In this document: positions 29,340-60,410 of the stretch, piece after piece
Layout: the number at the start of each line of letters is the position of its first letter
How positions within the stretch are numbered: the first letter of the stretch is position 1
Assembly: GCA_938009275.1 (NCBI GenBank)
Contig: CALLHY010000030.1
Span: 11,776 to 75,775, forward strand
Length of the DNA stretch: 64,000 bases
Direction of reading: 5' to 3'
DNA from: an uncultured bacterium
GTDB lineage: Bacteria; Cloacimonadota; Cloacimonadia; Cloacimonadales; Cloacimonadaceae
Notes under the pieces: model-generated
The model's input: the letters and a program-made list of their open reading frames with translations, nothing else
Database searches by the model: none
Told to the model about the DNA's origin: nothing
Position numbers and translations under genes: made by a program

Positions 29340-29370
29340 TATAAACTGACACCCAAAGCTGCAAGTTGTG
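29340..29370 (+). repeat. Left terminal inverted repeat
   Basis: tataaactgacacccaaagctgcaagttgtg compared with the reverse complement of 60380-60410 (tgcaaactgacaacgaaaactgcatattgtg) gives 24 of 31 matches, including a 9-nt core aaactgaca. Confidence 0.6.
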
Positions 29371-29549
29371 ACACAAGGTGAAAGTGGGGATAAGGCTTTA
29401 TGTGGTGGTGATATACGATGGACTTGCTTTGGAAATGTCCAAGCGCCTATTTGGACGTAATTGGACTGATTGCTGACACTTTAGCTGCAAATTAGGGGGG
29501 CGTTTGGACAGGCTTTGGAAAGAGCAGTTGGGAATTTTATTCTAGCAAA

Positions 29550-30305
29550 TTAATAAAAGCGCAATTGGAGTGCGATTGTGCCGATCAAGAAAGCTCCGTA
29601 ATTCCAATCTGAGTCTAAAACCAGAACCGGATAGTCTATATTAAATGGTTGGAGGATAATCTGTTGCCTGTGGTGGTCGATCTGCACCTTCTTGATGGTG
29701 AGACCATCGTCAGTCCTTACAACTGCAATTTTACCATCTGCATTTTCCCAGCTTAGATCACTCTTGATGACCACGATGTCCTGATGTAGGATCACAGGCT
29801 CCATGCTCTTGCCATTTATTTGAAAGACAGTGTATTGCTTGGGATTGCCAGGCAGAAATGAGATTGGCAATTGAATCTGTCCCACCTGACTCCACTCGTC
29901 TTTAATCTCTATCGGAGGTCCGGCAGCTATTTCACCAACTATGGGAAAGGTGATAGACCGAGTAGGATCGAAGTCCTGATTGTTGATGGGATGCAGGATT
30001 GGTGATACTATTGATGGAGTTGAGTTATCTGTATTGGTTTGCTTAGTGGGCGTCTGATTGGACTGGATAAGCTCCTGGAACTCATCTTTGGCATACATAG
30101 AACCGTTTCCAGTAAAGAGCCAGTGGAGGTTGATCTGATCTTTGGAGAGGGCTTCCAAGAACTCCGGATCGGGATAGCGCTCATTCAGCTTGTATCTTGA
30201 TAGGGAGGCACGAGAGATGCCATACTTATTGGCAAACTGGTAATCCTTCAGGCGCATGGCCTTAATCACCAAGCTAAGACGTTGTCCTATTGTAGGTTTA
30301 TTCAT
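29550..30305 (-). CDS. CI/LexA-like repressor (XRE HTH plus S24 autopeptidase domain)
   Basis: N-terminal HTH: IGQRLSLVIKAMRLKDYQFANKYGISRASLSRY. C-terminal GKSMEPVILHQDIVVI (Ser) and a downstream TIKKV (Lys). It is transcribed toward the left end, like Mu c. Confidence 0.85.
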   Translation of the reverse strand: MNKPTIGQRLSLVIKAMRLKDYQFANKYGISRASLSRYKLNERYPDPEFLEALSKDQINLHWLFTGNGSMYAKDEFQELIQSNQTPTKQTNTDNSTPSIVSPILHPINNQDFDPTRSITFPIVGEIAAGPPIEIKDEWSQVGQIQLPISFLPGNPKQYTVFQINGKSMEPVILHQDIVVIKSDLSWENADGKIAVVRTDDGLTIKKVQIDHHRQQIILQPFNIDYPVLVLDSDWNYGAFLIGTIALQLRFY

Positions 30306-30602
30306 TGTTAACTCCGTATAGCAACTTTACCATTGACCGTTTCCTTGTGGCTGCAGTTATGGTTCCTGATGCCAGTCTACCGGGAGGTGGATTGGAGTCA
30401 ATACTAAAGTGCATACTGTGACTCTGACAAATAATAAGTGATTGCCGGACAATCTTTAAGAAATCCCACAAACTTAACAGAAAGGACTTCCCAAGATTCT
30501 GCCGCTGTTGTTGTTAGCACCCTACTAATACATAAGAGAGGTGTAGTATGACTACAGCGAAAGCAAGACCAATCGGAAGGCAGAAACTGGCGAAATGTGG
30601 GG

Positions 30603-30734
30603 ATGTCCAAGCGGGTAGCCCTGTCCAAGTGGGGGGTGAAAAACAGCCTAACTCATTGATAACTATGATGAGAGGGCAAAATGTCCAAGCGCTTAGCCTC
30701 ATTTTACGGCAGTCTCTGGGAAAATGTCCAAGTG
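30603..30734 (+). promoter_or_regulatory. Array of four direct ATGTCCAAG(C/T)G-type sites in the divergent repressor/early-operon control region (putative operators)
   Basis: Sites are at 30603-30613, 30622-30631 (tgtccaagtg), 30681-30691 and 30724-34. A fifth copy is at 29435-29445, and TGGACA (the reverse complement) recurs at 29176, 29196, 29453 and 29505. Confidence 0.55.
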
Positions 30735-30760
30735 GGTCACGGTTCTTAAAGGATATACAG

Positions 30761-31126
30761 ATGGATTGTAGAGTCGATTACATCTGGCTGCCCTTGGACA
30801 GGGTGGCCATGCTGCTGGGCAAGAACCTGAAGACGATCAGGCGTATGGTTGCAGCCGGGAAACTGATAGCGCTGAAGCATCAGATCCCCACCAAGAACGG
30901 AGCCACGATCAAAACCTTCATCCTGGCTACGGAAGAGATCATAGCAGCCGAGTATGAGCGGTATCGGGATAAGTTGAGAAGGCCAGAACTCTATTTCGAG
31001 GAAGAGATTAAACTGGGCGAATGTAGCTTCCCCAGTGTTTTCCTAGTCTACTATGAAGATGCTTTAATGGACACAAATGGTCCCACTAACACAACTATCG
31101 GAGGCAATGATGTATCCGCTCGATGA
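30761..31126 (+). CDS. Small HTH DNA-binding protein in the Ner position (excisionase/MerR-like HTH)
   Basis: I prefer the internal start MDCRVDYIWLPLDRVAMLLGKNLKTIRRMVAAGKLIAL. The upstream part of track ORF 30548-31126 is occupied by the operator repeats. Confidence 0.5.
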   Translation: MDCRVDYIWLPLDRVAMLLGKNLKTIRRMVAAGKLIALKHQIPTKNGATIKTFILATEEIIAAEYERYRDKLRRPELYFEEEIKLGECSFPSVFLVYYEDALMDTNGPTNTTIGGNDVSAR

Positions 31127-33656
31127 AAGACCCACTCCTGAGTTCTTCGACCAGTATAAGGCAAAGCTGGCAGAATTGAATGAGCTATTGAAGAACCAAG
31201 GGCTATCCCTGGAGATCAAGCCAGGCGGCAGATGCTTTGTGGTGGACAGAACCAGAAAGGATGCTCCGGAACCCGAGAAGAGCCATCTGATCGCCTATGC
31301 GGAGCAGTTCAATAAGGATACCACGCTGCCTGATAAAGACGAATCTGATAAAGAAGACTACTATGGCTATGACGAACAGCAGTTCTTTGAAGTGGTGATC
31401 TCTCAGATACACGAAGCCAAAGATAATGATGTGGTGATCGATCTTTTTCCAGACTACATTGATCTGGCTCCGGTGGAAGAGGAGAAGCTACTGCACAAGG
31501 AAGAGGCGCAGCTCTATGCCCAGTTCTGCTTCGAGGCGATCAAGAGGCTGGATGCGGCACAATCGCGCACCACTGCCTGGAAGAGGATCACCACCGACTA
31601 CAACGCGGGCAGGATAGTACCGGAACTGAGGGAACTCAAAGGTCCGAGGCAGGAAAGGGCACTACGGGAATGGATCAAAACCTATTATGAGAGCAACTTC
31701 AACATGTTTGCCCTGATCCATAAGAGCAAGAGCACCCGCAAGGAACGCAAGATCACCTTTCACGAACAGCAGTATCTGCTCAACAAGCTGCTCAGTCCCA
31801 ACCGAATCAAGATCGGTTCCGCCATCGTCAATATGAAGCAGATGGCCAGGCAGGGCTTTCTGGATTCACCAACCCATGAACGGACTCTAAGACGCTGGTG
31901 CGAGGAATGGGCGGAGACCCATCCGGCTGAGTGGTATCAGGCCAGAGAGGGCAGTAAATATGTATCGGAGCGAGTCATAAAGTCTATCCGCAGAGACGAT
32001 AGCAGCTTAGCTGTGGGCGAAGTATGGGTGGCCGATGGACATACCCTATCCTTTGATATCATCAATCCCCAGACCGGCAGAGCCCAACGCATGACCATGA
32101 TCATGGTGATGGACTGGGCAAGCAGGTATCCGGTGGGAGCATCTTTAGCCTTTACCGAAGATAGTCAACATATCCTGACCGCTTTCCGCAATGGCTTCAT
32201 CAACGCCTCGCAGATTGCCGATAATGATAGGCAGACCATGGCGGTGTTACCCCAGTATGTCTATCTGGATAATGGCAAGGCCTTCAGGTCAAAGCTCTTT
32301 CATGAACAATGGGAGGATCATGACCTGAACAAGGAACTGGGTGGCATCTTCCCCCGACTCGATATAGGAGTCAGGTTCGCAGAGAGTTACAATGCCAAAG
32401 CCAAAATCATCGAGCGGTTCTTCAAGACCTTTCAGGAGCAGTTTGAGCGGTTCATCTCCACTTTCAGAGGTGCAAGCGTCGCCGATAAGCCAGCCCACTA
32501 CGGCAGAAACGAGAAGTGGGCAAAGAAGCTGTATACCGGCAAGCCGCCTACCATAGAAGAGACGATGCAGATGATCAACTTCTACGTATGCAAATGCTAT
32601 GGCGAGACACCACATGGATCACTGCAGCATCGGACTCCCTATGAGGTATTCAGTGCTGCCAGGATAGCCGAGAATCGCCAGATCGAGATATCCAAGCTCA
32701 ACTTCATGATGATGGCAATGGAACGCAAGAACATCCGCAACGAGGGCATCCGGCTCAACAAGCTGCTCTACTGGGACAGAAAGCTGGTCGATCATGTGGG
32801 ACAGCCCTGCATCATTCGGTATGACTATAGTGATGCCAGATGGATAGTGGTCTATGACAAGAACGATACCTTCATCTGCCAGGCGGCACTACGTCAGACC
32901 CAGCATCCCTTCATAGAAGTATCGATGGACAAAGCGGTCTCGCATAAGGCACTCAACAAGGAATACAATGAGATCAAGAAGCTGAGACGGGATAAGGAAC
33001 GCAGCGCTCAGAAATGGGTGATGTCTACCCAGGAATCGGTGGACGCGCTCTTGAGGCAACATGCGAAAAGGCCAGAAGTGCCAGATGAACTGGAAGACAA
33101 GGAATCGCTGTTCAATAGCCCACCCATGCTGGAAGCACCGCCACCTGATCCGGATGAAATCATCGAAGAGATGACCAGGCAAGCCATGCGCAACATGCCG
33201 CTGCATCCGAGTATGCTTGATAACAGAGCAAACCCTGAGAATCAGGATGATGAAACCGAACATGAGAATCCATTTGAAGCTCAGCGCAGGAAAGATGCTG
33301 AAATCAGAACCGTGCTTGAGCGGATGGGCTTTGATTGTCGGGAATTCAGGGGTGAGATACCTCAGTTCTTTATCGACATGGCCAATAACCAAATCCGCAA
33401 GCAGCAAGCAGAACAAAACAAAGCACAGGCAAACACTGATACAAAGCCTGAAAAAGCAGCAAGCGAGCAGAACAAATACCCAGATCAGGACAGTACAGAT
33501 AAACGCCAACACACACTTGATGAGATAGATATTGAACTAATGCGCTCTGAGGGCATCCCCATCCCCGGTGAAGACGATAAGGATGATGATAATCCTAAGG
33601 AGCCTATAGAATACCTAGATAAAGAGACGCTCCGCAGAATCGGGATCATCAAGTAG
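31107..33656 (+). CDS. DDE transposase of the MuA/TnsB/TniA (rve integrase-core plus Mu-transposase C-terminal barrel) type
   Basis: Candidate DDE triad: VWVADGHTLSF, YVYLDNGKAFRS and AKIIERFFKT. It has a beta-barrel-type segment IRNEGIRLNKLLYW and a long charged C-terminal tail. The start could be 31077, 31107 or 31110. Confidence 0.8.
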   Translation: MMYPLDERPTPEFFDQYKAKLAELNELLKNQGLSLEIKPGGRCFVVDRTRKDAPEPEKSHLIAYAEQFNKDTTLPDKDESDKEDYYGYDEQQFFEVVISQIHEAKDNDVVIDLFPDYIDLAPVEEEKLLHKEEAQLYAQFCFEAIKRLDAAQSRTTAWKRITTDYNAGRIVPELRELKGPRQERALREWIKTYYESNFNMFALIHKSKSTRKERKITFHEQQYLLNKLLSPNRIKIGSAIVNMKQMARQGFLDSPTHERTLRRWCEEWAETHPAEWYQAREGSKYVSERVIKSIRRDDSSLAVGEVWVADGHTLSFDIINPQTGRAQRMTMIMVMDWASRYPVGASLAFTEDSQHILTAFRNGFINASQIADNDRQTMAVLPQYVYLDNGKAFRSKLFHEQWEDHDLNKELGGIFPRLDIGVRFAESYNAKAKIIERFFKTFQEQFERFISTFRGASVADKPAHYGRNEKWAKKLYTGKPPTIEETMQMINFYVCKCYGETPHGSLQHRTPYEVFSAARIAENRQIEISKLNFMMMAMERKNIRNEGIRLNKLLYWDRKLVDHVGQPCIIRYDYSDARWIVVYDKNDTFICQAALRQTQHPFIEVSMDKAVSHKALNKEYNEIKKLRRDKERSAQKWVMSTQESVDALLRQHAKRPEVPDELEDKESLFNSPPMLEAPPPDPDEIIEEMTRQAMRNMPLHPSMLDNRANPENQDDETEHENPFEAQRRKDAEIRTVLERMGFDCREFRGEIPQFFIDMANNQIRKQQAEQNKAQANTDTKPEKAASEQNKYPDQDSTDKRQHTLDEIDIELMRSEGIPIPGEDDKDDDNPKEPIEYLDKETLRRIGIIK

Positions 33657-33665
33657 GGGGCGGCC

Positions 33666-34373
33666 ATGAAACAGGGAAAACTGATAACTACAGCCAATGT
33701 AGTCAAGGCTGATCGTGCCATTGAATATCTGCAGCGCAGACCGAAACTGGAGTTGGTGGGATTGGGACTGGTGTATGGCAAACCCGGGCTGGGTAAAAGC
33801 ACTTGGGCAAGCAGAACCGCCTTCAATAAGGGCTACATCTATCTCCGGCTGGAATCCACTACTACTCCCAAGAACTTCGCACAAAGGCTGCTCAACTCAC
33901 TGGCAAGCAGATACAACTACGGGAATGTGCCCACCTGTGGAGCTACCAATACCATCTTCAAGCGCTGCAAGGCAATCCTGGAGAACCATGAGGATGCAGT
34001 AATCATAGTTGATGAGATCGACTATGCATTCAGCAACAAGCAGCTCTTGGGTGCGATCCGGGATATAGTGGATGAGACCCTGGCCATCGTGATCCTGGTG
34101 GGCATGCAGAATGCCAAAGAGAAGCTGCTGCAGGTAAACGAATACTACTTTGACCGCTGCAATGTGTTCTGCGAGTTCAGCAGCAGTAACAAGAAAGATA
34201 TCTCAGAACTCTGCCGGCAGGTAATGGATAAAACGCCAAATGAGTCCATGAAAGAGATGATCTATCGTGAATCGACAGGGAACTTGAGACGAGCAGTTAA
34301 GCTCATCTATGGCGTCGAGAATGCGATTGGTGGCAATCATAATACTACCGCTCAAGCAAGCGAGATCAACTGA
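33666..34373 (+). CDS. AAA+ transposition ATPase (MuB/TniB-like)
   Basis: Walker A GKPGLGKST and Walker B VIIVDEIDYA. It lies directly downstream of the transposase. Confidence 0.8.
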   Translation: MKQGKLITTANVVKADRAIEYLQRRPKLELVGLGLVYGKPGLGKSTWASRTAFNKGYIYLRLESTTTPKNFAQRLLNSLASRYNYGNVPTCGATNTIFKRCKAILENHEDAVIIVDEIDYAFSNKQLLGAIRDIVDETLAIVILVGMQNAKEKLLQVNEYYFDRCNVFCEFSSSNKKDISELCRQVMDKTPNESMKEMIYRESTGNLRRAVKLIYGVENAIGGNHNTTAQASEIN

Positions 34374-34380: not shown

Positions 34381-34950
34381 ATGGGAACCGAAGGAACGAC
34401 AAAACAAGATCATCCCACATGCTCAAGCCCACAACTGGCTGATAAAGCCGAGATACTGGTTCGCAACTTCGTGAGCCAGTATCGTCGGCCGTTCTCTGCA
34501 GAAACAATCGCAATCTATACTGGCATATCCACCAAACGGCTGAAGCCAATCATAGACCGACTTATCGCAGATCAGCAGATCAAGGTAGTATCCATTGATC
34601 CTGAGCAGATATATGTTAAGGCTAATCGCTATATGGGGATATACGAAAAGACGCATGATCATAATCGCTGGAATTTTGATCCAGACAAGGCGATGATCTT
34701 ACTGAAGGAAGTCGAAGCCAACAAACATAGGAACGTCCGAACCATTTCCAAGGCCATCGGTAAATCCAGGCAGTGGGTGTATGTGTATCTGGAAGCCCTT
34801 GCTTCGATCGGAGCAATTGAGAAAGTGGATGGTTGTTACAAGTTAATCACTAAGGACTTTGTGTGGGCTATTGGAACGAATATCAAAAAGGGGATACTGG
34901 CGAGCAAAAAAAGTGATTCGCTCATCTGCTTGCCACTCAATCAAGTATAG
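34381..34950 (+). CDS. Hypothetical protein with two winged-helix-like segments
   Basis: ATG at 34381 follows GAGGTG. The segments FSAETIAIYTGISTKRLKPIIDRLIADQQIKVV and RTISKAIGKSRQWVYVYLEALASIGAIEKV look like wHTH units. Confidence 0.45.
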   Translation: MGTEGTTKQDHPTCSSPQLADKAEILVRNFVSQYRRPFSAETIAIYTGISTKRLKPIIDRLIADQQIKVVSIDPEQIYVKANRYMGIYEKTHDHNRWNFDPDKAMILLKEVEANKHRNVRTISKAIGKSRQWVYVYLEALASIGAIEKVDGCYKLITKDFVWAIGTNIKKGILASKKSDSLICLPLNQV

Positions 34951-35043: not shown

Positions 35044-35712
35044 ATGATAGTATTAAGTTTATCAAGATTGAGTGTACTCGAAAGAGCTGCAAAGGCCTAT
35101 TCAGAAGGCGATCTTAGAGAGATTGAGATAAGTGCCCAACGCTTGTATCCAGATGGGAACTACCCCTTTGTTGTATCACCGGAGTTCCCCTTCCCCTTGC
35201 ATCTGTTCAGTCCGCGTTTAACGGCTATGCTCACTAAGGATGAAGATCAATTAGAGGCTATGGCTATGTGGAGCCGGATAACTGCTAGGGAGAACATTAT
35301 CCGCATGATCACAGCTACAGAACTTGAACGAACCGCAGCGGAAAGCCTTGGCAAGCAGTTTGAGGTTATCTATAAGAAAGATACTGATGATGTGAAAATG
35401 AAGCGGAAACAGATGATTGGCTATATGATAAAAGTGGTGATGGAGTGTTTTGGGTACCTGGTTTATAGCAGTCGTATGCTGGTAAACACCCGCAGAGGCG
35501 ATGAAAATGATGCAAAGCGGAAATCCAATTACTTCACAACTGCTACCAGATACGCACTGATGAGCAAAAGGGACAGAAATGCTCTCTTAAACTTGGTTGA
35601 TGAGAAACACAAGACATCGTTCCTTTCTATAACGGACAGCCTTCTGGAGCGTAATACGAAGTATCAATCCAAATTCAATATTGATGGCATGACGAACTGG
35701 GAATCACTGTAG
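35044..35712 (+). CDS. Hypothetical protein, first gene of the nine-gene cargo operon
   Basis: AAGGAG RBS, 222 aa, no motif I recognise. Confidence 0.55.
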   Translation: MIVLSLSRLSVLERAAKAYSEGDLREIEISAQRLYPDGNYPFVVSPEFPFPLHLFSPRLTAMLTKDEDQLEAMAMWSRITARENIIRMITATELERTAAESLGKQFEVIYKKDTDDVKMKRKQMIGYMIKVVMECFGYLVYSSRMLVNTRRGDENDAKRKSNYFTTATRYALMSKRDRNALLNLVDEKHKTSFLSITDSLLERNTKYQSKFNIDGMTNWESL

Positions 35713-35724
35713 GGAGAAGATAGG

Positions 35725-37542
35725 ATGAAGATCGAGGGTATTGAACCAGTAGAAATCCTGCACAAGCTGATTGAATTGAAACCAATGAAACATGATATGG
35801 AGGATGAGCAGGAACCTACTCAAAATGCCGTTACTACTGCTATTGATGCCTCCAATGCTAAGCTAATCAACAAGCATGTTCGCCAATTGATTAAACACCC
35901 ACTGTTTGAGAGTTACAGCCTTTCTCAACAGGATGTGATGGTAATCGCCGATCTCTGGCAATTTCATCTCGAACTGCCTGGCAGGGGCAGTAGCTGGGCA
36001 AGTATCTGCGCCAGTGCCAAGATTAGGCGTTATCAGGCGATTGCATGCCTGAAATACGTTACCGGGCTCTTAGAACGCAATATCATCTGCTTTGATGAGA
36101 GGATTGAGGGAAACTACTATCTTAATCCTATGATCCTGCAATCTGCCGAATACACTCTCAGCAAAGACCTCATCCTGAAGATATTGGGGAGGGATATAAG
36201 AGAAGACCTGGAACTGGTCATCAAAGATAACTGGCAGGATGATAAGGACTTCATGAGTGACCTGAGACTGATTTTTAATCTCTGCTACAATACCTTTGGC
36301 GAATTGGGCAGCAGGTCTCCTGTACTGGAGTATCCGATTCTATCGGCTTGCTTGCATCTTCTCAAAGACAGAATACTGGCTGCTCCGGATAGCCTGGGCA
36401 TAAAAGAACTCATACGCCAACATAGCCTAAGAGAAGACCAGCTGTTCATAATACTTGTGGTCATGTATCACCAACTATGTTGTGATGATAGAATAACTGA
36501 GGCAGATCTGGCTCTCTCTCTGGCCCCAGATCCCAGATTCAGGTGGCTGCAGCAACAACTCCTTAGCGATGATTCCGTCTTGATATCTTCCGGGCTTATC
36601 AGCAGAGAACAACGCTTCCATCGGGCCCAGGTGAACACTATAGGTATTCCGCATGAAACACTTAAAACGCTGGGGTATAGGTCTAAAACCTCTGAAGATG
36701 TGGTGATAAAGCTTACCCCATACTTTCAAAAGTGCCAGCCCAAGCAGACCCTGGGTGATGTGATTATTCCCGAATCAGATAAGCAACTTATTTCCCAGAT
36801 AATAACAAAGTGCAAGCCTTATAAACGCAGAGACCTGGAAAAATGGGGATTCAAGATCGAAAGTAATAAACAAGGTGCGGTACTGCTGTTGTACGGTGCT
36901 CCTGGAACCGGCAAGACTTTTACTGCCGGCGCCATAGCCAATGAACTTCACAGAGATTTGGTCACTCTCAACGTACCCGAACTAAGAAACAAATACTACG
37001 GAGAGACCGAGAAGCTGATCAAGAAAGCTTTCTGCGAGATGCGGGAGCTGGCTACTAAGGAAGAGAATGCTCCAGTGTTTCTGCTCAATGAAGCAGATCA
37101 ATTGATCCATGAAAGGATCTCCATCACTTCAACCTGCAGCACTATCGAGAACTCCATCCAGAGCATTATATTGGAGGAAATGGAAACTTTCCCGGGCATC
37201 CTGATCCTAACCACGAACCTTGAGACTAACCTCGATGAGGCCTTCTTTCGCCGCTTTGATCTCAAGTTCAGATTTGGACTACCGGATCTCGAAAGCAGAC
37301 GCAAGCTGTGGAGGATGTATCTCAGAAAGGAGATTCCAGGATCAGAGGATATCGATGTTGAGCCATTAGCGCAGAAATATCAGTTCAGCGGCGCACAGAT
37401 CGCACTGGTGGTGCAAAACGCCTGTATTGAAGCGATTGGTCGAACTGGAAAATCAAAACGGCTCTATCTTCAAGACCTACTTAAATATGCAGATCTTGAG
37501 CTACCTTGGGCAGACAAAGTAAATAAAAGTATAGGGTTTTAG
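35725..37542 (+). CDS. Classic-clade AAA+ ATPase with a roughly 370-aa N-terminal domain of unknown function
   Basis: Walker A GAPGTGKT, Walker B-like VFLLNEADQL (Asn in place of the usual Asp) and an SRH region LTTNLETNLDEAFFRRFD. Confidence 0.8.
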   Translation: MKIEGIEPVEILHKLIELKPMKHDMEDEQEPTQNAVTTAIDASNAKLINKHVRQLIKHPLFESYSLSQQDVMVIADLWQFHLELPGRGSSWASICASAKIRRYQAIACLKYVTGLLERNIICFDERIEGNYYLNPMILQSAEYTLSKDLILKILGRDIREDLELVIKDNWQDDKDFMSDLRLIFNLCYNTFGELGSRSPVLEYPILSACLHLLKDRILAAPDSLGIKELIRQHSLREDQLFIILVVMYHQLCCDDRITEADLALSLAPDPRFRWLQQQLLSDDSVLISSGLISREQRFHRAQVNTIGIPHETLKTLGYRSKTSEDVVIKLTPYFQKCQPKQTLGDVIIPESDKQLISQIITKCKPYKRRDLEKWGFKIESNKQGAVLLLYGAPGTGKTFTAGAIANELHRDLVTLNVPELRNKYYGETEKLIKKAFCEMRELATKEENAPVFLLNEADQLIHERISITSTCSTIENSIQSIILEEMETFPGILILTTNLETNLDEAFFRRFDLKFRFGLPDLESRRKLWRMYLRKEIPGSEDIDVEPLAQKYQFSGAQIALVVQNACIEAIGRTGKSKRLYLQDLLKYADLELPWADKVNKSIGF

Positions 37543-37550
37543 GGGGTATA

Positions 37551-38462: not shown

Positions 38463-38480
38463 ACATAAGGAGATAAGGTC

Positions 38481-40305: not shown

Positions 40306-40339
40306 ATATAACAAACATCCGACTTGAAAAGGGGGTTGC

Positions 40340-41149: not shown

Positions 41150-41178
41150 CCTGGTCAAGAGTCGATTAAGGAGGATAG

Positions 41179-42546: not shown

Positions 42547-42580
42547 GATTAGTCAAAATCAATCATATTGAGGAGATAAA

Positions 42581-49109: not shown

Positions 49110-49110
49110 A

Positions 49111-51318: not shown

Positions 51319-54185
51319 GCATGGCCAGGGAATACAGAAACAAAATCAGCCTCTCGGAATTGACCCTGGATATCGATCACCGGAAGTATGATATCGGGCA
51401 ATTTGATTTTTCCGAGATCGAAGAGTATGTGCGAGAAATCTCCAATGGCAGGCAGTATCAGTTTGACGCTATCCGGCAGATTATGGTCTACCTCTGGGGC
51501 GGGCGCTATGAATCGATAGAGGACCTGGCCCGGCAGAACTTCAAAAAGAAGGAAGCCATCCGGCAGAGGTTCTCATCGGAAAAAAAACTGCTCTCCCAGA
51601 TCCCTTTACCCGGCAAGCTCTCCGGGGTTTGCTACATGGCCACCGGAGCGGGAAAATCCTATGTGATCTTTGCTATTGCCTATCTTTCGATCCTCTTGGG
51701 GAAAGTGAAACGGGTGCTGGTGCTGGGGCCTCCCTCCACGGTAATCGAACAAGGATTGACAGAAAAATTCCGGGATTATATGTACTCACCCAAGGGACTG
51801 GCAATGAAGAATAAATTGCCGGAGAAATACCGGAACATCCAGGTCAGCCTGTGCAACGCCAATGACATTGTGGATGATTACAGCATCGTTATCGAGAATA
51901 TTAACGCTGTCTATACCAAAGGCGAGAATGCGATCACGGATATGCTCTTCAAGCATACCGAAGAAGTACTGGTTTTGAGCGATGAAGTGCACCACGCCTA
52001 TTCCCACTTGAAATTTGGCGATGCCGGAGTAGCCTTCGATTTCGATGGTATGAATTTCGGTAAAGGCGAAGATAAGAATGAGCGCTTGTGGATGAAGTTT
52101 CTGCGGGACAATCTTCTGGAAGACCAGAAACTGAGCGAGGAAACCAAGATCAAGCGCCATATTGGCTTCACGGGGACGCCTTATAACCAGAACGATTTCT
52201 TCCCTGACGTGATCTTTGATTATTCGATCAAGGACGCCCTGGAGGAGGGGATCATCAAGAGGATCAATCCTTTGCTGAAGATCAAGACCTCGGATGATGA
52301 TTCCGATCTTACCCAGGATCAGAGATATGAGCAGATCATCCAGACCCATCTGGATAACAAGGATAGATATTCCTACGGAGGGAAGGTAAAACCCATAAGC
52401 ATCTTTATCAACAACACCCAAAAAGCCGCCCAGGATAATGCAGACAAGTTTTACACAGTTTACAGCCGTTATCTTGCAAAGCATGATCCATTTTATCAAG
52501 GCCAAACCGTTAACGCTATCGAAGGTCTGCTACGTAATGACAAAGTGGTGATTGTAGCTACATCCTCAGCCAATCGGGAAGACTACCTGGATCAACTGAA
52601 CAGGATCGAGGAAACTGATCCAGTTAAAACCGGGGGCAGGACAGAATTTATCTTTGCGGTGAATAAACTCTCCGAAGGGTGGGATGTGGACAATGTGTTC
52701 CAGATCGTTCCCATGCAGGAGAAGGTGTTCAACTCCAAGCTGCTGATCTCTCAAGTTTTGGGAAGAGGGCTCAGGTTACCTCGTAAGGTTTCGTATTTTG
52801 AGCTTAAGGGCAACTACCCCGAAGTGGTGATCACCAATCATGAGAAGTTTGGCGAGACAGTGCGCAATCTCCTGGATGAGGTGCGTGAATGTGATTTGAT
52901 CGTATCTTCTAAGGTGTTTACATCAAAAGACGAGAGTCCGCGATTTAATCATCATTTCACTTTGTTCAACCTGGATTATGACTTGGTAAAAGAAATCGTG
53001 GATAAAGAGCCGGAACAGGAATCAAACCGGTCTTTGACGTTGAAACCTCAGACCAGTTCTATGACGGCGGATGTGCAATATCTACATGGGGAAAAGACTT
53101 TCACTCTGACCAAGGACTTCAGCTCTTTGGATGAGGTGGTTCTGAGCGTTTTCAGGAAGATGAAGAATGTGGAGTTTGAAAATCAGCGTCTAAACTTGGA
53201 TCGTTCTCTTGATCTGTCAAAACTCACCAACCGTGATTATATTAGAGAAGTCATCCGTGCAGCCATGCAGGATGCTGGTATCACGCAAGATGCGCTCACA
53301 AACGAGAATAAGAAGGCTGTGGAGCTTTATTTCAACAGCTTCCTGCCCCGGGGTGAGAAGAGTGTCAGGTTTGATAGAAAAGTCAATCTGGCTACTGCCT
53401 TGCGAACTCTGGAAATGAACGCCAGCAGCGTCCGGGCCGGAGCACTGGATCAAAGCAGTTCGCTGTTTGTCTCGGATGATTGGGAAAATGAGCTATCGAA
53501 TGAGTATCACATTTTTATCAATGAACTTGCCCTAACATCAGGCAAATCTGCTGATCAAACCACGATATTTGATACTGGCATTTCCGATCTGGATACCGAT
53601 CTGATCCAGAAACCGTATGAGGGCAAGAGATTCTTTACCGTAAATCTTAGCGCTTTCAAAACACCCCAAAACTGCGTTGTTTGCTCCCATATCCCGGAGA
53701 CCAACTTCATCATCGGATTGATCAAACATGCAGCCTATCTTGAGAGCTGGATCAAGTCCCCGGATATGGGTTTCTACTCCCTGGGCTATGAATACTGGAA
53801 AAGGGGCAAGGACAGGGTCCGGCGATTCTTTAATCCGGATTTCTTCATCCGCATTGATCTGGCCCGTTATCTCACGAATTGTGGTAAGAACATGCATGAT
53901 TCGGATAAAAGAAAGCTGATAGGTTTGCAGGATCAGGGTATCAGGGAACTGGTCTGCGTCGTGGAGATCAAAGCCGAAGATGATTTTGAAGAAGTAACCA
54001 ATGCTAAGGATGAGCACGGTTCCCGCCACTTTGAAGAGCTAAACAAGGAACTCAAACAAGCCAATCCGATCGATCTGCACCTAACCAGCCGGGAAACAAA
54101 GGATCAGCACTACTCCTTCTTCCTGCTGAGAGCGGATGGATTCGAATCTTGGTTCAGAAAGCTCAGGAATGGGGCTTTGATATAG
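51315..54185 (+). CDS. res: Type III restriction enzyme Res subunit (SF2 helicase plus C-terminal PD-(D/E)xK nuclease)
   Basis: ATGA overlap with mod. Motifs are MATGAGKSYV, LSDEVHHAY and NKLSEGWDVDNVFQIV. The C-terminus has NPDFFIRIDL...VVEIKAEDD. Confidence 0.85.
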   Translation: MSMAREYRNKISLSELTLDIDHRKYDIGQFDFSEIEEYVREISNGRQYQFDAIRQIMVYLWGGRYESIEDLARQNFKKKEAIRQRFSSEKKLLSQIPLPGKLSGVCYMATGAGKSYVIFAIAYLSILLGKVKRVLVLGPPSTVIEQGLTEKFRDYMYSPKGLAMKNKLPEKYRNIQVSLCNANDIVDDYSIVIENINAVYTKGENAITDMLFKHTEEVLVLSDEVHHAYSHLKFGDAGVAFDFDGMNFGKGEDKNERLWMKFLRDNLLEDQKLSEETKIKRHIGFTGTPYNQNDFFPDVIFDYSIKDALEEGIIKRINPLLKIKTSDDDSDLTQDQRYEQIIQTHLDNKDRYSYGGKVKPISIFINNTQKAAQDNADKFYTVYSRYLAKHDPFYQGQTVNAIEGLLRNDKVVIVATSSANREDYLDQLNRIEETDPVKTGGRTEFIFAVNKLSEGWDVDNVFQIVPMQEKVFNSKLLISQVLGRGLRLPRKVSYFELKGNYPEVVITNHEKFGETVRNLLDEVRECDLIVSSKVFTSKDESPRFNHHFTLFNLDYDLVKEIVDKEPEQESNRSLTLKPQTSSMTADVQYLHGEKTFTLTKDFSSLDEVVLSVFRKMKNVEFENQRLNLDRSLDLSKLTNRDYIREVIRAAMQDAGITQDALTNENKKAVELYFNSFLPRGEKSVRFDRKVNLATALRTLEMNASSVRAGALDQSSSLFVSDDWENELSNEYHIFINELALTSGKSADQTTIFDTGISDLDTDLIQKPYEGKRFFTVNLSAFKTPQNCVVCSHIPETNFIIGLIKHAAYLESWIKSPDMGFYSLGYEYWKRGKDRVRRFFNPDFFIRIDLARYLTNCGKNMHDSDKRKLIGLQDQGIRELVCVVEIKAEDDFEEVTNAKDEHGSRHFEELNKELKQANPIDLHLTSRETKDQHYSFFLLRADGFESWFRKLRNGALI

Positions 54186-54212
54186 TATCATTACACATTA
54201 AGGAAGTATTGT

Positions 54213-55265
54213 ATGACAAACACAACTGATAAAGCGCTGCTGGTTGGCAATGGCATCAACAGGGTGTTTTGCGATTCAGACTACTCCTGGAGTGATCTAT
54301 TACAGGATCTGTCAAACATTCGTTCGGGAAATATTGATCTGAGTAATCCCTTTAAGCCTTTACCTCTAGCCTTTGAAGAGATTCTTAAAGCTAAAAACAA
54401 CGATTATAAAAATGCTGTTCGAGTGTTGAAAAAGAAAACTGCTGAGATATTTGCAAAGCTTCCTGTTCGGGAAGTCCACAGAATGATAGCCGGTAATACT
54501 AAGTATCGGAATATAATGACCACAAATTACGAGTATACTTTGGAAAAAGCTTATGCAGAGATTCATTATCCAAATAGTGACTTCAGGGATCATTGCATAA
54601 GTAAGTTAAGCACAAATGAAGAAATTCACAGTCTTATGAGAAAGTATGAGTTTGCTGATGAGCGCCTTGTAGTTTGGCATATCCATGGTGAGATTAATCA
54701 TACCAAGTATTCAAATGCGGAAAAAATCCTGCCTAGCAATTCAATCTTGATCGGATACAATCAATACATATCATATCTTGATACTATCTATCGGTATTTC
54801 TTTACAAATAAGAAGACCAAATATACAGAATACTCATCTCTACAGGAGAAAATGACTAAATGCATGGCTGACCTGAATAGATTGGACATCGACACCTGGA
54901 TCGATTTCTTCTTTTTCAGAGATATTGATATCATTGGACTTACACTGGACTTCTCAGAGATGCATCTTTGGTGGATACTCAATCGCCGATTTAGCCTAAT
55001 CAAAGACTCTGATATATTCAATGAGGAGTCTGATAAAAAGGCATCATTTAACCCAACAAACACGATCACATACTACTACCCCAAACTAAGCAAGAACTGC
55101 TTGGAAGAGAAGTGCTCTGATGCCCTGAATGATGTTAAACAAAAGGCAATATTGAATATGCTCGAAGTGTTAGGAGTAATCACCAAAGCCGTAAAGTGTA
55201 GATCCTATGAAGATTATTATACTCATGTATTGGGTAATAACGTAATCGCTTCGCAGCGAGCATAA
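54213..55265 (+). CDS. AbiH-like / SIR2_2-like protein (tentative)
   Basis: The N-terminal ALLVGNGINRVF...YSWSDLL and the later VVWHIHGEINH resemble the GNG/GAG start and the (K/H)xHG motif of AbiH and SIR2_2-type defence proteins. This is recollection only. Confidence 0.4.
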   Translation: MTNTTDKALLVGNGINRVFCDSDYSWSDLLQDLSNIRSGNIDLSNPFKPLPLAFEEILKAKNNDYKNAVRVLKKKTAEIFAKLPVREVHRMIAGNTKYRNIMTTNYEYTLEKAYAEIHYPNSDFRDHCISKLSTNEEIHSLMRKYEFADERLVVWHIHGEINHTKYSNAEKILPSNSILIGYNQYISYLDTIYRYFFTNKKTKYTEYSSLQEKMTKCMADLNRLDIDTWIDFFFFRDIDIIGLTLDFSEMHLWWILNRRFSLIKDSDIFNEESDKKASFNPTNTITYYYPKLSKNCLEEKCSDALNDVKQKAILNMLEVLGVITKAVKCRSYEDYYTHVLGNNVIASQRA

Positions 55266-55338
55266 GCGCTAAAAGGCTGTTTCGGCATTAGCATTATTGC
55301 ATACAGTTTTTATTGCTTTGGGGATATTGGGAGAATGA

Positions 55339-58300
55339 ATGTCATACAAAGCTTTGGATGAAGTTCTAAGCAACTTTCAAGATAGAATAATCGGCGTAAA
55401 ATCGATCGATTCTCGTGAGGCTGTATATGAGTCTATACCGGAAAGTTGCCATAGCTCCATTAAGAAGGGGCTGGCAACTTTGGGTATCAAGCAATTGTAT
55501 AGCCACCAAGCCAAGATGTTTTCGGAAGTATACGAGGGCAGGAATGTTATCATTACCACGGGTACTTCCAGTGGAAAATCTTTGGCTTTTTACCTGCCAG
55601 TACTACAAAGTATCATTGAAGATTCACGCGTAAGAGCACTCTTTGTCTATCCAACCAAAGCTCTGGCACAAGATCAAAAAGCAAGCCTGGAGAAGTTCCT
55701 TAAAGCAATCAAATGCAAACCAGAGATAACTGTTGGAGTATACGATGGAGACACTCCGCCCTCAGAACGAAAGAGCATACGAGACCATGCGAATATCATA
55801 CTGACCAATCCGGACATGCTGAATGTCAGCTTCCTGCCAAACCATAATAAGTATGGATTCCAAGAGATCTTTCGATATCTTGACTTTGTGGTCCTGGATG
55901 AGTTGCATGTTTATCGAGGAGCCTTCGGGACACATGTGGCAAATCTCATGCGCAGATTACTCCGTATCTGTAACTACCACGGAGTATCTCCACAATTTCT
56001 TTGCAGCAGTGCCACCATTGCCAATCCTCTTGAACTAGCGCAAAATATCTGTTCCAAACCATTTATCCATCTCGAACAGGATGGTTCGTTCAATTCCGGG
56101 AAAAAGCTGGTTTTTTGGCAGTGTCCACTTCATAATGATTCTCTCAATGAGGTTACAAACCTGATACCTGATCTGGTTGTTAATGATATCAGTAGCATCA
56201 CATTCTGTCAGAGCCGGCGAGACGTAGAGGTTGCTTCACGGGAGATCTGTGGAATCCTGGCTCAGCAGCACGGAAGTATTCATCTACAAAACAAAGTGTC
56301 GGCTTATCGCTCTGGCCTCACTCCCAATGAGAGAAGATCTATCGAGTTTAACCTGCGCACGGGAAAACTTAGAGGAGTGATTTCGACTAATGCGCTCGAA
56401 TTGGGTATAGATATTGGATCATTGGATGCGGTTGTAATGGCAGGATTCCCGGGAACCAAAGCTAGCTTCTGGCAACAAGCTGGTAGAGCAGGCAGAAGAT
56501 CCGGGGATGCTTGGATAGTAATCATTCTATCCAATCGGCCTATTGAACATTACATTGCCCAAGACCTCGATTGGTTAACAGATTCCAGCGTGGAAAATGC
56601 GATAATAGATATCAGCAATATTTTCATTCAGATGGCTCACATCAGAGCCGCAGCATATGAGTTACCGCTATCAAGAACAGACATCAAGTACTTCCATGAT
56701 CTTGGTGTAATAGCTCAAAAGCTAGTTGAGACTGGCGAACTGACTCAGGAAAGTGATCAATTCCTATGGGCTCATAAAAACAATACTAATCCCGCAATGG
56801 AGATCAGTTTACGTAACATGAGCAACGAAAGCATCGATGTTGTGGATAGACAGAGTGAAAAGACTATTACATCTACAGATCTGATTACCGCAAAGTATGA
56901 GCTTTTCCCGGGAGCTATCTACCTCCATGACGGTGTTCAGTATAAAGTACTGGCATTAGATTTTGAACAAAAACAAGCCATATTAACCGGAGTTAACAGC
57001 AACCACTACACTGTGCCTTTCGTGAATACCTCGGTCAGAATACTCGGAACAGTACATCATAAACCAATATTCAGGTGTAAGGCTGCTTGGGGTGACGTCA
57101 AAGTAACTGCCCTAATCAATGCTTATAAAAAAATAGCATATTTCACTCATGAGAACCTTGGCTATGAAGAACTGGATACCGATCAAAGGGTTGATTTGGA
57201 TACCGAGGGTACCTGGATATTGCTGCCGGAAAACCTGCAAGCATTGCCTTCAAGACTAGGATCTGGAGAAGAATCTCCCGTGAACAGAGACTCCAAATAT
57301 GATATTGATGGATTGGTCTTTGCCCTGGTAAACGCGGCATCGATCAGAACAATGGCTTCTTATAGTGATATCGGCGGTACGGTATTTGGGATCGATAAAC
57401 CCCCCAAGTCATCTCTGTTGATCTATGACAAATACAATGGAGGGCTTGGATTTGCCCAGAAGATCTACGAAGTGATTGATGATGTGATCCTGGATGCGAT
57501 AAAAATTGTCGAATCCTGTCCATGTAAACATGGCTGTCCTTCATGTGTTGGACATATGCAAATTGATAAGAACATCGTTTTATGGGCACTGCGCAATCTA
57601 AGGGTAGAATCGCCTATGCCAGAATCTCTGGAGCTGTTACAACAAACTCCCTTAGTAAATCCTAATCCAATCATCCGGGAAAAGTACAAATTGAACTGGA
57701 TCGAAGAGCATTGGAGCGAATTCGCCGATAGTTTCAAGCTAAGCTATCCAGATACCTATCAATTTCTCTTACTCGTACAAGGAGTAACTATACTGGAAAG
57801 CACGATTCACATAGCGGTTTGGAAGTCCAGGATTTATTTTTTGCCAGATTACAAGGACTACTTATCGTCGGTCAGGGAAGATATCCGGAAGTCGATTCAT
57901 GAGCCAGTGGAGGTTATAATTGACTTAGAGGATGATCCTGGGCTTCAAGCAAAGCAAGCAAAACTTGATAGGCATTTCAACAAAAGCCCTGCCATCGAAG
58001 TAAAAGGTTCAAGTCCTCCAGAGGGGGGTATACAATCTACTGCTACTAAAAAATCTTCTGCAGATTCTCAGAAGAGCGAGTCTCTTGACGATGCCGGTGC
58101 CATGGTTACAGAATTCGATTCAAGTACTTCTGAATTGCTTCTTTGGTGCCTGGAGTATGAAGATTATGAACAAGTACTGGATCTGCCAAACAAAGTCTTA
58201 GTATCGATCCTTACGCAAAAATCGGGAAGCCAAGTTATAAAAGCAATCCGTAGCTCTGCAAACTACCAAAAGTTGCTGAAATATATCGTTAAAATGCATC

Positions 58301-60117
58301 GTTCATCTAGTGTCCAATGCACTGCATTAAGCCTTGTAGAAGATGATTTATTCATTGTTGACACAGCTCTCAATAGTCTTTATGCCAGTATTCGCCAAAC
58401 AGCTGCTGATATGATCGTCGACCCGCAATTGCTTCTAAAGATAGCATTGAATGACAGAAGCAGTAAGATACGGGCATCTATGGTGGAGAGAATTAAAGAT
58501 CCAGCATTGTTAGAGCAGGTAGTTCTGGATAGCAAAGAGCAGGATACCATGAAGCAAGCGCTCAAATTAATCGATGACATTGATATTTTAACAAGATTGT
58601 CGTCAGAAAGTAAGTTTGCTGCAATTAGAAACATGGCTTTATCACGACTAAATAAAACACGAAACCGAATCGAAAAAGCTGAGAGAGCCGCAGAAAATGA
58701 AGGGCAAAATCATAAGCCACAAAAACAACAATCAGCTTTCGATAAAATGATGAAGGCAACCGGTACTGTCAAACCGATTTATCAACGAGGCAAAGGACCT
58801 GAAAAACGAAAAACACCATGGGTAGAATTGAGGGACAAGTATCAGGAGGAGTTTTCAGGTATCAAGATTGAACGTCCGCAATTGAATTTAGAAGTATTCA
58901 ACAAGAGCAAGGACTTAACCAAGCTGATCAGGTCCATCTTAGTAGAAGAGAACACCTGGGTACAGGAACAAGACCTCTTTATTGTAGAAGAGGACTCATG
59001 GGAACAGGTACAAGACCTATACACTCTCGTTGCACTGAAGAAAATTGCGTTTGAACTTTCTGGCAAAAAATCTAACGCTAAACTAACGATTGAAACCGAA
59101 TCAGTTTTTAAGGATATTGTTCTAAGTAAAAGAAGCCAGAAATCCAAGCTGGCTGCTATACGGGGTATTGATGATCAACAATTCTTAAAATACCTGCTTT
59201 TTGCCGGAGCAGATAAAGATCATCGCTTGGCTGCAGTGCAAAACATAACCGACCTGTATTTATTGGAACAACTCACTAAACTGGATCGTAGCAAGGATGT
59301 CCGCGAGCAAGCTTATCATAGGTTGTTAGATCTCAAATGGGCAGCTACTAGAGGTGATGGAATTGATAATAGTCTGGCAGTTTTTTTTAAAAAGTCTAGT
59401 CTTGTTGTTATCGACACAGAAACAACTGGATTGACTCCAACCGATCGGATCTGTCAACTTGCTCTTGTTAAGTTTGATTCGTCCGGTGTTGAGACTTTTT
59501 CTGACTACTGTAATCCTCATGTTCCAGTTAATCCCTTTGCTTATATGGTTCATGGCTTATCAGACTCGTTTCTAAAGAAACAGAAAGATATCAAGAAAAC
59601 TCCAACCTACAAGAAGTTGAATGAGTTTATCGCTGAAAAATGCGTTTTCGTTTTTCACAATGCTCCATTTGATCTTCGTTTCCTGTCTTACGCTGGTGTT
59701 AAGATTAATAATCCTGTGGTAGATACCTTGAAAATAATCAGGCAGATGAAGTGTTTCCAGGATAATAAGCTGAGCACAGCATTAACATTTCTAAAGAGAA
59801 TCTTCCCTGACTTGAATGTCAAACCACATGATGCTCTGGGCGATGCTATGACCACTCTGCATTTATTAAAATGGCTGTACCAAGCTTATCCTTGTCACGT
59901 TGGTAGAATGATCTACGAGGGTGGCAATTATTCAGCACATACTGACACTGTTCCACGCACGCCTACCCGATCCCGTAAAAAGAGTAGTAAAAAGCCAAAA
60001 AGTAAGGTTGTCAAAGAACCCAAGGCGAAATCTATAAGTAATGTATCCTTTGACGAGGAAGAAGATGACTTATTCGAATTATACGACGATTTAGAAGATG
60101 ATTTTTACGATTTCTAG
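55339..60117 (+). CDS. YprA/MrfA-type DEAD/DEAH helicase with DUF1998 zinc module, fused to HEAT-like repeats and a C-terminal DnaQ-like DEDDh 3'-5' exonuclease
   Basis: Helicase: LYSHQ, TGTSSGKSLAFYLP, PTKALAQDQ, VLDELHVYRG, TNALELGIDIG and QQAGRAGRR. DUF1998: YDKYNGGLGF...CPCKHGCPSCV. Exonuclease: VVIDTETTGL, FHNAPFDLRFL and HDALGDA. The tail reads ...EEEDDLFELYDDLEDDFYDF. Confidence 0.85.
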   Translation: MSYKALDEVLSNFQDRIIGVKSIDSREAVYESIPESCHSSIKKGLATLGIKQLYSHQAKMFSEVYEGRNVIITTGTSSGKSLAFYLPVLQSIIEDSRVRALFVYPTKALAQDQKASLEKFLKAIKCKPEITVGVYDGDTPPSERKSIRDHANIILTNPDMLNVSFLPNHNKYGFQEIFRYLDFVVLDELHVYRGAFGTHVANLMRRLLRICNYHGVSPQFLCSSATIANPLELAQNICSKPFIHLEQDGSFNSGKKLVFWQCPLHNDSLNEVTNLIPDLVVNDISSITFCQSRRDVEVASREICGILAQQHGSIHLQNKVSAYRSGLTPNERRSIEFNLRTGKLRGVISTNALELGIDIGSLDAVVMAGFPGTKASFWQQAGRAGRRSGDAWIVIILSNRPIEHYIAQDLDWLTDSSVENAIIDISNIFIQMAHIRAAAYELPLSRTDIKYFHDLGVIAQKLVETGELTQESDQFLWAHKNNTNPAMEISLRNMSNESIDVVDRQSEKTITSTDLITAKYELFPGAIYLHDGVQYKVLALDFEQKQAILTGVNSNHYTVPFVNTSVRILGTVHHKPIFRCKAAWGDVKVTALINAYKKIAYFTHENLGYEELDTDQRVDLDTEGTWILLPENLQALPSRLGSGEESPVNRDSKYDIDGLVFALVNAASIRTMASYSDIGGTVFGIDKPPKSSLLIYDKYNGGLGFAQKIYEVIDDVILDAIKIVESCPCKHGCPSCVGHMQIDKNIVLWALRNLRVESPMPESLELLQQTPLVNPNPIIREKYKLNWIEEHWSEFADSFKLSYPDTYQFLLLVQGVTILESTIHIAVWKSRIYFLPDYKDYLSSVREDIRKSIHEPVEVIIDLEDDPGLQAKQAKLDRHFNKSPAIEVKGSSPPEGGIQSTATKKSSADSQKSESLDDAGAMVTEFDSSTSELLLWCLEYEDYEQVLDLPNKVLVSILTQKSGSQVIKAIRSSANYQKLLKYIVKMHRSSSVQCTALSLVEDDLFIVDTALNSLYASIRQTAADMIVDPQLLLKIALNDRSSKIRASMVERIKDPALLEQVVLDSKEQDTMKQALKLIDDIDILTRLSSESKFAAIRNMALSRLNKTRNRIEKAERAAENEGQNHKPQKQQSAFDKMMKATGTVKPIYQRGKGPEKRKTPWVELRDKYQEEFSGIKIERPQLNLEVFNKSKDLTKLIRSILVEENTWVQEQDLFIVEEDSWEQVQDLYTLVALKKIAFELSGKKSNAKLTIETESVFKDIVLSKRSQKSKLAAIRGIDDQQFLKYLLFAGADKDHRLAAVQNITDLYLLEQLTKLDRSKDVREQAYHRLLDLKWAATRGDGIDNSLAVFFKKSSLVVIDTETTGLTPTDRICQLALVKFDSSGVETFSDYCNPHVPVNPFAYMVHGLSDSFLKKQKDIKKTPTYKKLNEFIAEKCVFVFHNAPFDLRFLSYAGVKINNPVVDTLKIIRQMKCFQDNKLSTALTFLKRIFPDLNVKPHDALGDAMTTLHLLKWLYQAYPCHVGRMIYEGGNYSAHTDTVPRTPTRSRKKSSKKPKSKVVKEPKAKSISNVSFDEEEDDLFELYDDLEDDFYDF

Positions 60118-60245
60118 CCATTGTATACTTATTATTCATAGATTAGTTCTAGCTTGCGATAGTTAATACTTGTTTGAAGTCTCGGGCAGGATGTTTAGAA
60201 CTTTTGAGATCACCTAGGCATCCATTATCAGCAGTAAACATTTCA

Positions 60246-60410
60246 TTTGCAGAAATCCTGTCAGAATTTGCAGTTTTCGGTGATCCGATTTGCAGAAAGC
60301 CTGTCCAAAACCACCTAAACAGGTCTTGGGAAGGATGAGCAAGGATGTCCCACGATGCGACAGTTTGCAGATTTCGCTGCACAATATGCAGTTTTCGTTG
60401 TCAGTTTGCA
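60246..60410. repeat. Right-end array of TTTGCAG-type sites (putative transposase-binding sites), including the right terminal inverted repeat 60380-60410
   Basis: TTTGCAG occurs at 60246, 60267, 60289 and 60364, TATGCAG at 60385 and the terminal TTTGCA at 60405-60410. The inverse CTGCAA(A/G) is at 29359 and 29485 in the left end. Confidence 0.6.

Follow-up and report, generated by a model that had tools for sequence, protein, structure and literature searches.

Non-phage Mu transposons and Tn7-like transposons that carry defense systems are both already known. CasMu-I and CasMu-V have been described as non-phage 'Mu transposons' with CRISPR modules of type I-A or type V (Altae-Tran et al. 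2023, PMC10910872), and in a review (PMC11656645) CasMu-type elements are presented as phage-like carriers of cargo. That Tn7-like transposons carry defense systems is well established (Benler et al. 2021, PMC8649781). Here we describe an element of 31,071 bp that occupies positions 29340-60410 of a 64,000-nucleotide stretch of DNA (hereafter the window; contig CALLHY010000030.1, positions 11,776 to 75,775) from an uncultured member of the Cloacimonadaceae. It very probably represents an intact member of a Mu-type transposon family, autonomous and of phage descent, in Candidatus Cloacimonadota, an uncultured phylum whose members dominate many anaerobic digesters. From a Mu-like phage the family has retained just the five genes for transposition and its control, the remainder being taken up by changeable, defense-rich cargo. 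Neither this Cloacimonadota family, nor a Mu-type transposon with ordinary defense cargo or with a LexA-like repressor, was found described in the literature searched, which was incomplete.

The element shares features with each of the described systems. In common with Mu-like phages (Mu, D3112/DMS3, BalMu-1, KS10, SuMu and a Cloacimonadota prophage, loci L166/L170) are the layout of an outward-reading repressor, a small helix-turn-helix (HTH) protein, a transposase (A) and an ATPase (B), as well as asymmetric ends with several sites, a 5-bp duplication, a target preference of the N-Y-N-R-N type and near-random insertion sites. The element differs from these phages in its lack of lysis, packaging, head and tail genes, in its approximately 25 kb of interchangeable cargo and in its left tip, which reads 5'-TA. 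Compared with that of the Cloacimonadota prophage, its A protein has an extra acidic C terminus of ~170 aa (859 vs 682 aa). CasMu elements, compared here by description only, are likewise MuA/MuB-type transposons carrying cargo in place of virion genes, whereas our element carries classical defense systems at dispersed insertion sites and has no detected Cas effector module. Tn7-like transposons share with it a heteromeric DDE transposase with an AAA+ regulator, 5-bp duplications, asymmetric multi-site ends and a large, variable cargo rich in defense systems and nested mobile elements. In contrast to them, it has no TnsA, TniQ/TnsD selector or attachment site, possesses a phage-type repressor and is probably replicative rather than cut-and-paste. 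It also differs from the Tn5053/Tn402 family, as no TniQ or resolvase domain was found in it.

The boundaries of the window copy were first proposed in a reading made from the letters of the window only (the sequence-only reading), and both junctions quoted there are present in the sequence. The left target-site duplication, CCGTT at 29335-29339, is the same as the right one at 60411-60415, and the terminal 31-mers of the element, compared in inverted orientation, are identical at 24 of 31 positions, confirming what had been claimed for both. A degenerate 24-mer that fits both tips matches the 64-kb window at those two tips only, in inverted orientation, with 0 matches in 100 shuffles of the window. 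The broader claim, that this is a bounded transposon whose inverted terminal repeats are imperfect and whose target is duplicated over 5 bp, holds for the window copy and for two further complete copies, and statistically it holds for 136 junctions. The additional copies of the ends for which the same reading had proposed a search proved to be numerous, with fixed boundaries, as described below.

In order to survey the family, the end pattern was scanned over JGI metagenomes, and a looser version of it over one genome per GTDB species. The metagenome scan returned at least 80 loci, those listed all being left ends, while the scan of species representatives returned 76 ends in 42 metagenome-assembled genomes (MAGs), all but two labelled Cloacimonadota or unclassified. 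One MAG carries nine ends (four left and five right). Homologues of the transposase number 432, and those with names come from Candidatus Cloacimonadota MAGs. A transposase 95% identical to that of the window copy occurs in other genomic contexts, where homology to the window starts exactly at base 29340, and near-identical cores (A 95-97%) were found at different sites with different cargo. After removal of repeat assemblies of the same site, 136 distinct junctions remained (108 left and 28 right), each with a different flank and with homology starting at the same base; the left boundary at 29340 is fixed by all 108 of the left junctions. Because these junctions share an exact start base while their flanks differ, the boundaries of the element are biological and not a product of chance. 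Besides the window copy, three contigs hold facing left and right ends. Two of these are complete copies with perfect 5-bp duplications, one of 30,414 bp flanked by ATCGG and one of 27,424 bp flanked by TTTTT.

Both ends extend well beyond their tips. About 200 bp are kept among 80 unique left ends, with conservation ending near the repressor gene, and ~170 bp are kept among 28 unique right ends; both conserved regions hold repeated 22-bp units that are predicted transposase sites. In the window copy the left end (29340-29545, forward strand) consists of the terminal site TATAAACTGACACCCAAAGCTGCAAG and subterminal repeats, of the types TGACAC...CTGCAAAT (about 29472-29493) and TGGACnnGCTTTGGAAA (29419-29435 and 29505-29521). 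The right end (60241-60410, reverse strand) contains five 22-bp sites of the type nnTGaCAnnnAAAnCTGCAAAT. Two of these lie side by side at the tip, and the other three, likewise adjacent to one another, follow after a gap of ~53 bp. The repeats of the left end are more spread out, in an arrangement unlike that of the right end. The family consensus of the right tip is TGCAACGTGACAACGAAAACTGCAAATTGTGCAG, beginning with TG in most copies.

The pooled targets of the 136 junctions reveal a family-wide target rule. Position 2 of the duplication is C or T in 71% (G in 9%) and position 4 is A or G in 72% (C in 6%), giving a symmetric N-Y-N-R-N logo with no enrichment of G or C at position 3. This pattern is identical from either end and is centered on the third base, which requires a 5-bp stagger. 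Mu prefers N-Y-(G/C)-R-N, and the rule of this family agrees with it except at the middle base. Insertion sites are dispersed, and no attachment site was seen among the 136 flanks. In the same flanks (loci L005-L163), three bases out from the duplication on either side, C hardly occurs (4%), a depletion which suggests that target contacts may extend beyond the 5-bp stagger.

Five core genes follow inward from the left end, in the order repressor, HTH protein, transposase A, ATPase B and winged-HTH protein, and all five open reading frames (ORFs) are intact in the window copy, both ends of which fit the family consensus. The repressor (251 aa, 29550-30305, reverse strand) reads toward the left end and combines an N-terminal CI-type HTH with a C-terminal, LexA-like S24 self-cleaving domain, with matches to Peptidase_S24 (3e-17), Phage_CI_repr and the transcriptional repressor family phrog_4 (9.7e-30). 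In an alignment with LexA the Ala-Gly site of cleavage (IAAGPP) is retained, as are the catalytic Ser (in GKSM) and Lys (in TIKK). This intact site and Ser/Lys dyad make it plausible that the element would be derepressed after DNA damage, though the SOS-inducible behavior that the sequence-only reading drew from the S24 repressor was put too strongly. Between the repressor gene and the early operon lies an intergenic region (30306-30547) that is assigned a divergent regulatory role by position only; scans of the repressor/early-operon region for promoters, terminators and operators gave nothing above chance, including some weak promoter-like matches and two imperfect inverted repeats in the intergenic region itself. 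The small HTH protein (192 aa, 30548-31126, forward strand) occupies a Ner/Cox-like position and has weak winged-HTH and Phage_Cox matches; its gene overlaps the start of the transposase gene at 31077.

Transposase A (859 aa, 31077-33656, forward strand) consists of an rve core, a Mu-transpos_C barrel (9.2e-17) and a long acidic C-terminal extension. Its residues D320, D398 and E446 align with the catalytic triad of TnsB and are invariant in 30 homologues. The extension is a low-complexity stretch of ~170 aa within residues about 640-859 (window 33000-33656), with a conserved tail of the form E-x-L-x-x-I-G; it is present in transposases of the transposon lineage and missing from the prophage lineage. 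By analogy only, it recalls the MuB/ClpX-interaction region at the C terminus of MuA. ATPase B (235 aa, 33666-34373, forward strand) is a predicted AAA+ target-capture protein with matches to AAA_22 (5.4e-15) and TniB (4.3e-5). The fifth core gene encodes a winged-HTH protein of about 189 aa (34381-34950, forward strand) with TrmB and HTH_29 matches; its start is taken as the ATG at 34381, the mechanical ORF beginning at 34309. The locus displays several features of a Mu-type A/B module, namely an rve plus Mu-transpos_C transposase, an AAA+ ATPase adjacent and downstream, and a divergent repressor/HTH pair. The sequence-only reading had likened this layout to the left end of transposable phages, and the likeness is borne out by matches of A to phrog_310 (8.5e-77 over residues 153-805) and of B to the 'DNA transposition protein' family phrog_296 (2.4e-23), and by a prophage that shares all five genes and the left end.

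This prophage belongs to a lineage with a shorter transposase (A of 682-701 aa, about 57% identical in the core) that was seen at three sites, including L166/L170. It has the same order of repressor, HTH, A, B and winged-HTH (167 aa) genes, followed by DUF3164, a small-terminase-like protein, TerL (phrog_38, 9.5e-54) and the Mu F protein. A satellite carrying only TerS, TerL and Mu F was considered for this lineage and rejected, since the extended locus shows a phage lysozyme and a portal past an accessory block; the lineage is therefore a Mu-like prophage. The accessory block itself spans ~11 kb between the Mu F gene and the lysozyme and portal genes (L170, 7659-18423) and includes a nucleoid-associated protein, a DNA methylase and, on the opposite strand, two large proteins with type IX secretion system (T9SS) signals (Por_Secre_tail); in other prophage copies its position is taken by an Abi protein and a type III restriction-modification system, or by other genes. 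The left end of the prophage is collinear with that of the window copy and identical to it at 141 of 219 positions (64%), and homology between two prophage copies runs from exactly this left end onward. When prophage genes were compared with the transposon loci by tblastn, only the five left-module genes were present; TerL, Mu F, DUF3164 and the other prophage genes had no tblastn match in any family locus. The Mu-type assignment is sound because a Mu-like prophage of the same phylum shares both the five-gene module and this left end.

The affinity of A was further ranked by tblastn and by a profile search of PDB sequences. Among characterized sequences, the best tblastn matches to A are the transposases of phages BalMu-1, phiRTG5 and KS10 (105-107 bits), compared with about 65 bits for Tn552-type plasmid proteins. 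Since the profile match to E. coli MuA, given below, is marginal, 'Mu-type' here denotes the transposable-phage transposase family and not close kinship to Mu itself.

The five left-module genes are the only genes that recur in related loci (repressor in 78 loci, HTH in 53, A in 34, B in 24 and winged-HTH in 20, counts which are limited by how far each locus reaches). The interior ORFs of about 45 loci fall into 100 clusters, of which 83 are non-core and mostly singletons. Across the family the cargo includes BrxL, the Azaca proteins ZacABC, HEC-05, PD-T4-4, a CBASS cyclase, SspB and DpdF, together with reverse transcriptases, GmrSD, AEP-TOTE, dynamin-like proteins and nested insertion sequence (IS) elements. 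The sequence-only reading had described the window copy as free of lysis, head and tail genes, and this description stands. Head, tail, lysis and packaging genes are absent from the 19 ORFs of the element in Pfam, PHROG and PADLOC profile scans and from the window beyond 60.4 kb, and no head or tail family is among the top 25 PHROG/Pfam families listed per survey for roughly 160 related loci. The accompanying claim of that reading, that the cargo holds only defense-type genes, was partly upheld: defense cargo is real in this copy and family-wide, and the word 'only' is too strong because six cargo ORFs have no defense assignment. The right end itself is conserved. The genes adjoining it differ in nearly every copy, which is the opposite of the pattern expected from a phage.

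Several observations weigh against an intact, autonomous Mu-type transposon. No empty site for the window copy was recovered from related-strain contigs or flank homologues, and an all-against-all comparison of flanks among the fetched loci yielded only repeat assemblies of the same insertions. No direct sign of activity, such as excision or junction reads, was seen. Canonical Mu-type tips read 5'-TG...CA-3', whereas the left tip of this family reads 5'-TA in ~97% of copies. Of the five pairs in which both ends share a contig, two lack a matched duplication, namely the 30,578-bp pair on JASKKR010000016.1 and a 6.6-kb mini-copy, where GTTAA faces ATAGT. Such unmatched pairs could be artefacts of assembly, in which copies of a repeat were chimerically joined, or could result from recombination between copies or from intramolecular replicative transposition. 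Most relatives are seen only within 8-14 kb of one end, the cargo surveys speak for the first 25 families of each, and the defense functions of the cargo are predictions from profile matches. Finally, the family profile matches the type V-K TnsB of ShCAST, a CRISPR-associated transposon (CAST), at 6e-11 among PDB sequences and the E. coli MuA core at 0.57.

Three other explanations were weighed. It is unlikely that the element is a helper-dependent 'transposable satellite', which would transpose with its own A and B and be packaged headful into the capsids of a co-resident Mu-like phage by means of a signal in the left end. Such a lifestyle would fit the collinear left end of the same-phylum prophage, the wholly retained repressor/Ner/A/B/winged-HTH phage module, the absence of any other transfer machinery seen, and the sizes of the four complete or near-complete copies, which all lie between 27.4 and 31.1 kb despite unrelated cargo. 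But the sizes come from a sample of four, and another copy measures 6.6 kb. Genes for a terminase, for capsid remodelling or for any other hallmark of satellites were not found, and the end pattern had no match in the IMG/VR viral contigs. In addition, the prophage has diverged in both A (57%) and the left-end sites (64%), making cross-recognition by a helper phage uncertain. No Mu-type satellite was described in the literature searched. If this explanation were true, the family would descend from a Mu-like phage that lost its virion genes while its ends, repressor switch and A/B engine of replication by transposition were retained, and induction of the helper phage would amplify the element and ferry about 25 kb of exchangeable defense systems between Cloacimonadota cells.

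An immobile remnant, that is a dead and decayed Mu-like prophage whose late genes were replaced by a host defense island, would share its left module with a true prophage, as the element does, and could well adjoin another defense gene (bSEFIR, beyond the right end) and leave no recoverable empty site. We hold this to be highly improbable. Decay is contradicted by the five intact core ORFs and by two ends that match the family consensus, and immobility by near-identical cores at different sites with different cargo, by the 136 distinct junctions with their target-site rule, by several copies per genome and by a right end that is conserved although the cargo next to it is unrelated from copy to copy. 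A Tn7-like or Tn5053/Tn402-like transposon, rather than one of the Mu type, is very doubtful as well. The 5-bp duplication, a transposase of the TnsB/TniA type with an AAA+ partner bearing a weak TniB match, and the finding that the type V-K CAST TnsB was the only solved structure found by sequence would all suit it, as would the defense cargo typical of Tn7-like elements (PMC8649781). Nevertheless, no TnsA, TniQ/TnsD or resolvase domain was found among the ORFs of the element, it inserts at dispersed sites without an attachment site, its transposase scores higher against transposable-phage transposases than against Tn552-type plasmid proteins, and its regulatory and transposition module and its left end are common to a Mu-like prophage.

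For the autonomous Mu-type transposon that we favor, the following mechanism can be modelled on Mu, Tn7 and CAST systems. A would bind the repeated sites at both ends and pair the ends, B would load onto target DNA and hand the target to A, and A would then join the 3' ends across a 5-bp stagger. Because neither a TnsA-like second nuclease nor a resolvase was found, it is probably replication or repair that resolves the strand-transfer joint, the route taken by Mu and by CASTs without TnsA. Replicative resolution would raise the copy number and could yield rearranged copies with unmatched flanks. The repressor would silence the A/B operon until inactivated, perhaps by RecA-stimulated self-cleavage. 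It is hypothesized that the cargo helps the host by blocking phages, so that the element is retained.

The family explains how defense islands are built and moved in Cloacimonadota: a single kind of element, present in 42 or more genomes at species level and several times over within a genome, serves as a vehicle for dozens of defense systems. Because the phage relative persists in the same phylum, the evolutionary transition from phage to transposon is visible, and the module and ends shared by a phage and a cargo transposon lend support to seeing Mu, Tn7-like and CAST elements as a continuum. The 83 non-core clusters, many of them unannotated and drawn from a small sample, offer a focused place to look for new defense systems. 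Developers of large-cargo insertion tools may also take an interest in the element, which has well-defined ends spanning about 210 and 170 bp and a compact A/B pair predicted to move roughly 30 kb.

The cargo of the window copy is arranged in two blocks, both on the forward strand. Block 1 (35044-44229) comprises nine ORFs. It begins with a 222-aa ORF without a match, followed by an IetA-like AAA+ ATPase (35725-37542), a REase-ARP nuclease (37551-38462), two ORFs without a match and then a Sel1-repeat protein, a PHP-domain protein (41179-42546), another ORF without a match and PDC-S32 (43507-44229, 8.5e-80). The six cargo ORFs lacking a defense assignment comprise the Sel1 and PHP proteins and four ORFs of 222, 305, 313 and 294 aa; four cargo ORFs have no match of any kind. 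The closest relatives (L005, L006, L007 and L028), and only these, share a scaffold consisting of the AAA+ ATPase (about 87% identical), the PHP protein (about 80%) and PDC-S32 (about 95%). Between the ATPase and PHP genes of this scaffold the content is swapped, with REase-ARP, unknown ORFs and Sel1 in the window copy and other ORFs in the relatives. As judged from this gene content, the scaffold may be a multi-gene system with exchangeable parts.

Block 2 (44703-60117) comprises five ORFs. An SF1 helicase-nuclease (1468 aa, MkoA/Hhe-like) stands first, followed by an N6/N4 DNA methylase (49111-51318), its partner ResIII/SNF2 helicase (51315-54185, type III restriction-modification or DISARM-like), a SIR2-like protein (54213-55265) and a 1592-aa, DruE/DrmA-like DEAD helicase fused to MZB/DUF1998 and a DEDDh exonuclease (55339-60117). 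Judged by its predicted domains, the block is akin to modules of type III restriction-modification, DISARM or Druantia. Its genes were not found in any related element, and block 2 is thus cargo specific to this copy. PADLOC and Pfam scans of the window proteins gave no Cascade or Cas12 match, and no dedicated search for CRISPR arrays was made. Within the 1592-aa protein, Cas3/Cas3d models match the helicase core (E 1.9e-20) far less strongly than DruE models do; other Cas-labelled matches were a DEDDh model on the exonuclease domain of the same protein and weak CasR models on the winged-HTH protein. As no Cas genes or CRISPR array were seen, nothing suggests RNA-guided targeting in this element.

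A number of family members depart from the common architecture. The 6.6-kb mini-copy (L073, 7919-14475) has both ends and a transposase split into ORFs of 252 and 548 aa, and lacks a B gene. In five copies (L094, L118, L053, L125 and L066) a complete left end is directly followed by non-core genes, one of them a 1863-aa ORF starting 134 nt from the tip; these may have arisen by deletion or interruption, or may be non-autonomous elements. A third lineage (L164/L165, about 8137-13718) has an A protein of 830 aa (54% identical) and a repressor gene split into 84 and 182 aa, with host-like genes from about 5.6 kb past the left end; its right end was not found, and it may be a minimal or decayed element. 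Homologue contigs of 29-34 kb were at one point taken as a clue to element size, which was dropped when their coordinates showed mostly partial elements with flank. A few ends or transposases (L130, L133 and protein P0006) come from bins labelled Kiritimatiellae, Gracilibacteraceae or Synergistaceae, labels which could reflect mis-binning or real spread across phyla.

Beyond 60.4 kb the right flank of the window copy (37% GC) carries a 237-aa ORF, the bSEFIR defense protein (61407-62861, PADLOC 3.7e-78), a 301-aa ORF and a T9SS-type secreted protein. The 237-aa ORF, which lies within 60683-63782, has 20 homologues, none more than 67% identical. Since bSEFIR and this poorly conserved ORF adjoin the right end, we infer that the transposon landed beside an older variable or defense region. 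Every contig with the right-flank SEFIR gene also holds the element. An island targeted to a tRNA gene was rejected, as neither tRNA or tmRNA genes nor Rfam matches were found in the window.

On the left, the insertion lies downstream of argF. In another Cloacimonadota species (L156, 1-6273) a family member is inserted ~5.6 kb downstream of an argF orthologue (85% identical), in the orientation opposite to that of the window copy, which is either a coincidence or a regional preference. Just downstream of argF in the window (28956-29111) are four adjacent arrays of 8-bp tandem repeats, GCACTCCA, CACTTTTC, ACCTCTCG and CCCCAGCA. In a 97.7%-identical strain the contigs with argF break off within the 8-bp repeats, which are differently arranged there, about 230-380 bp before the insertion.

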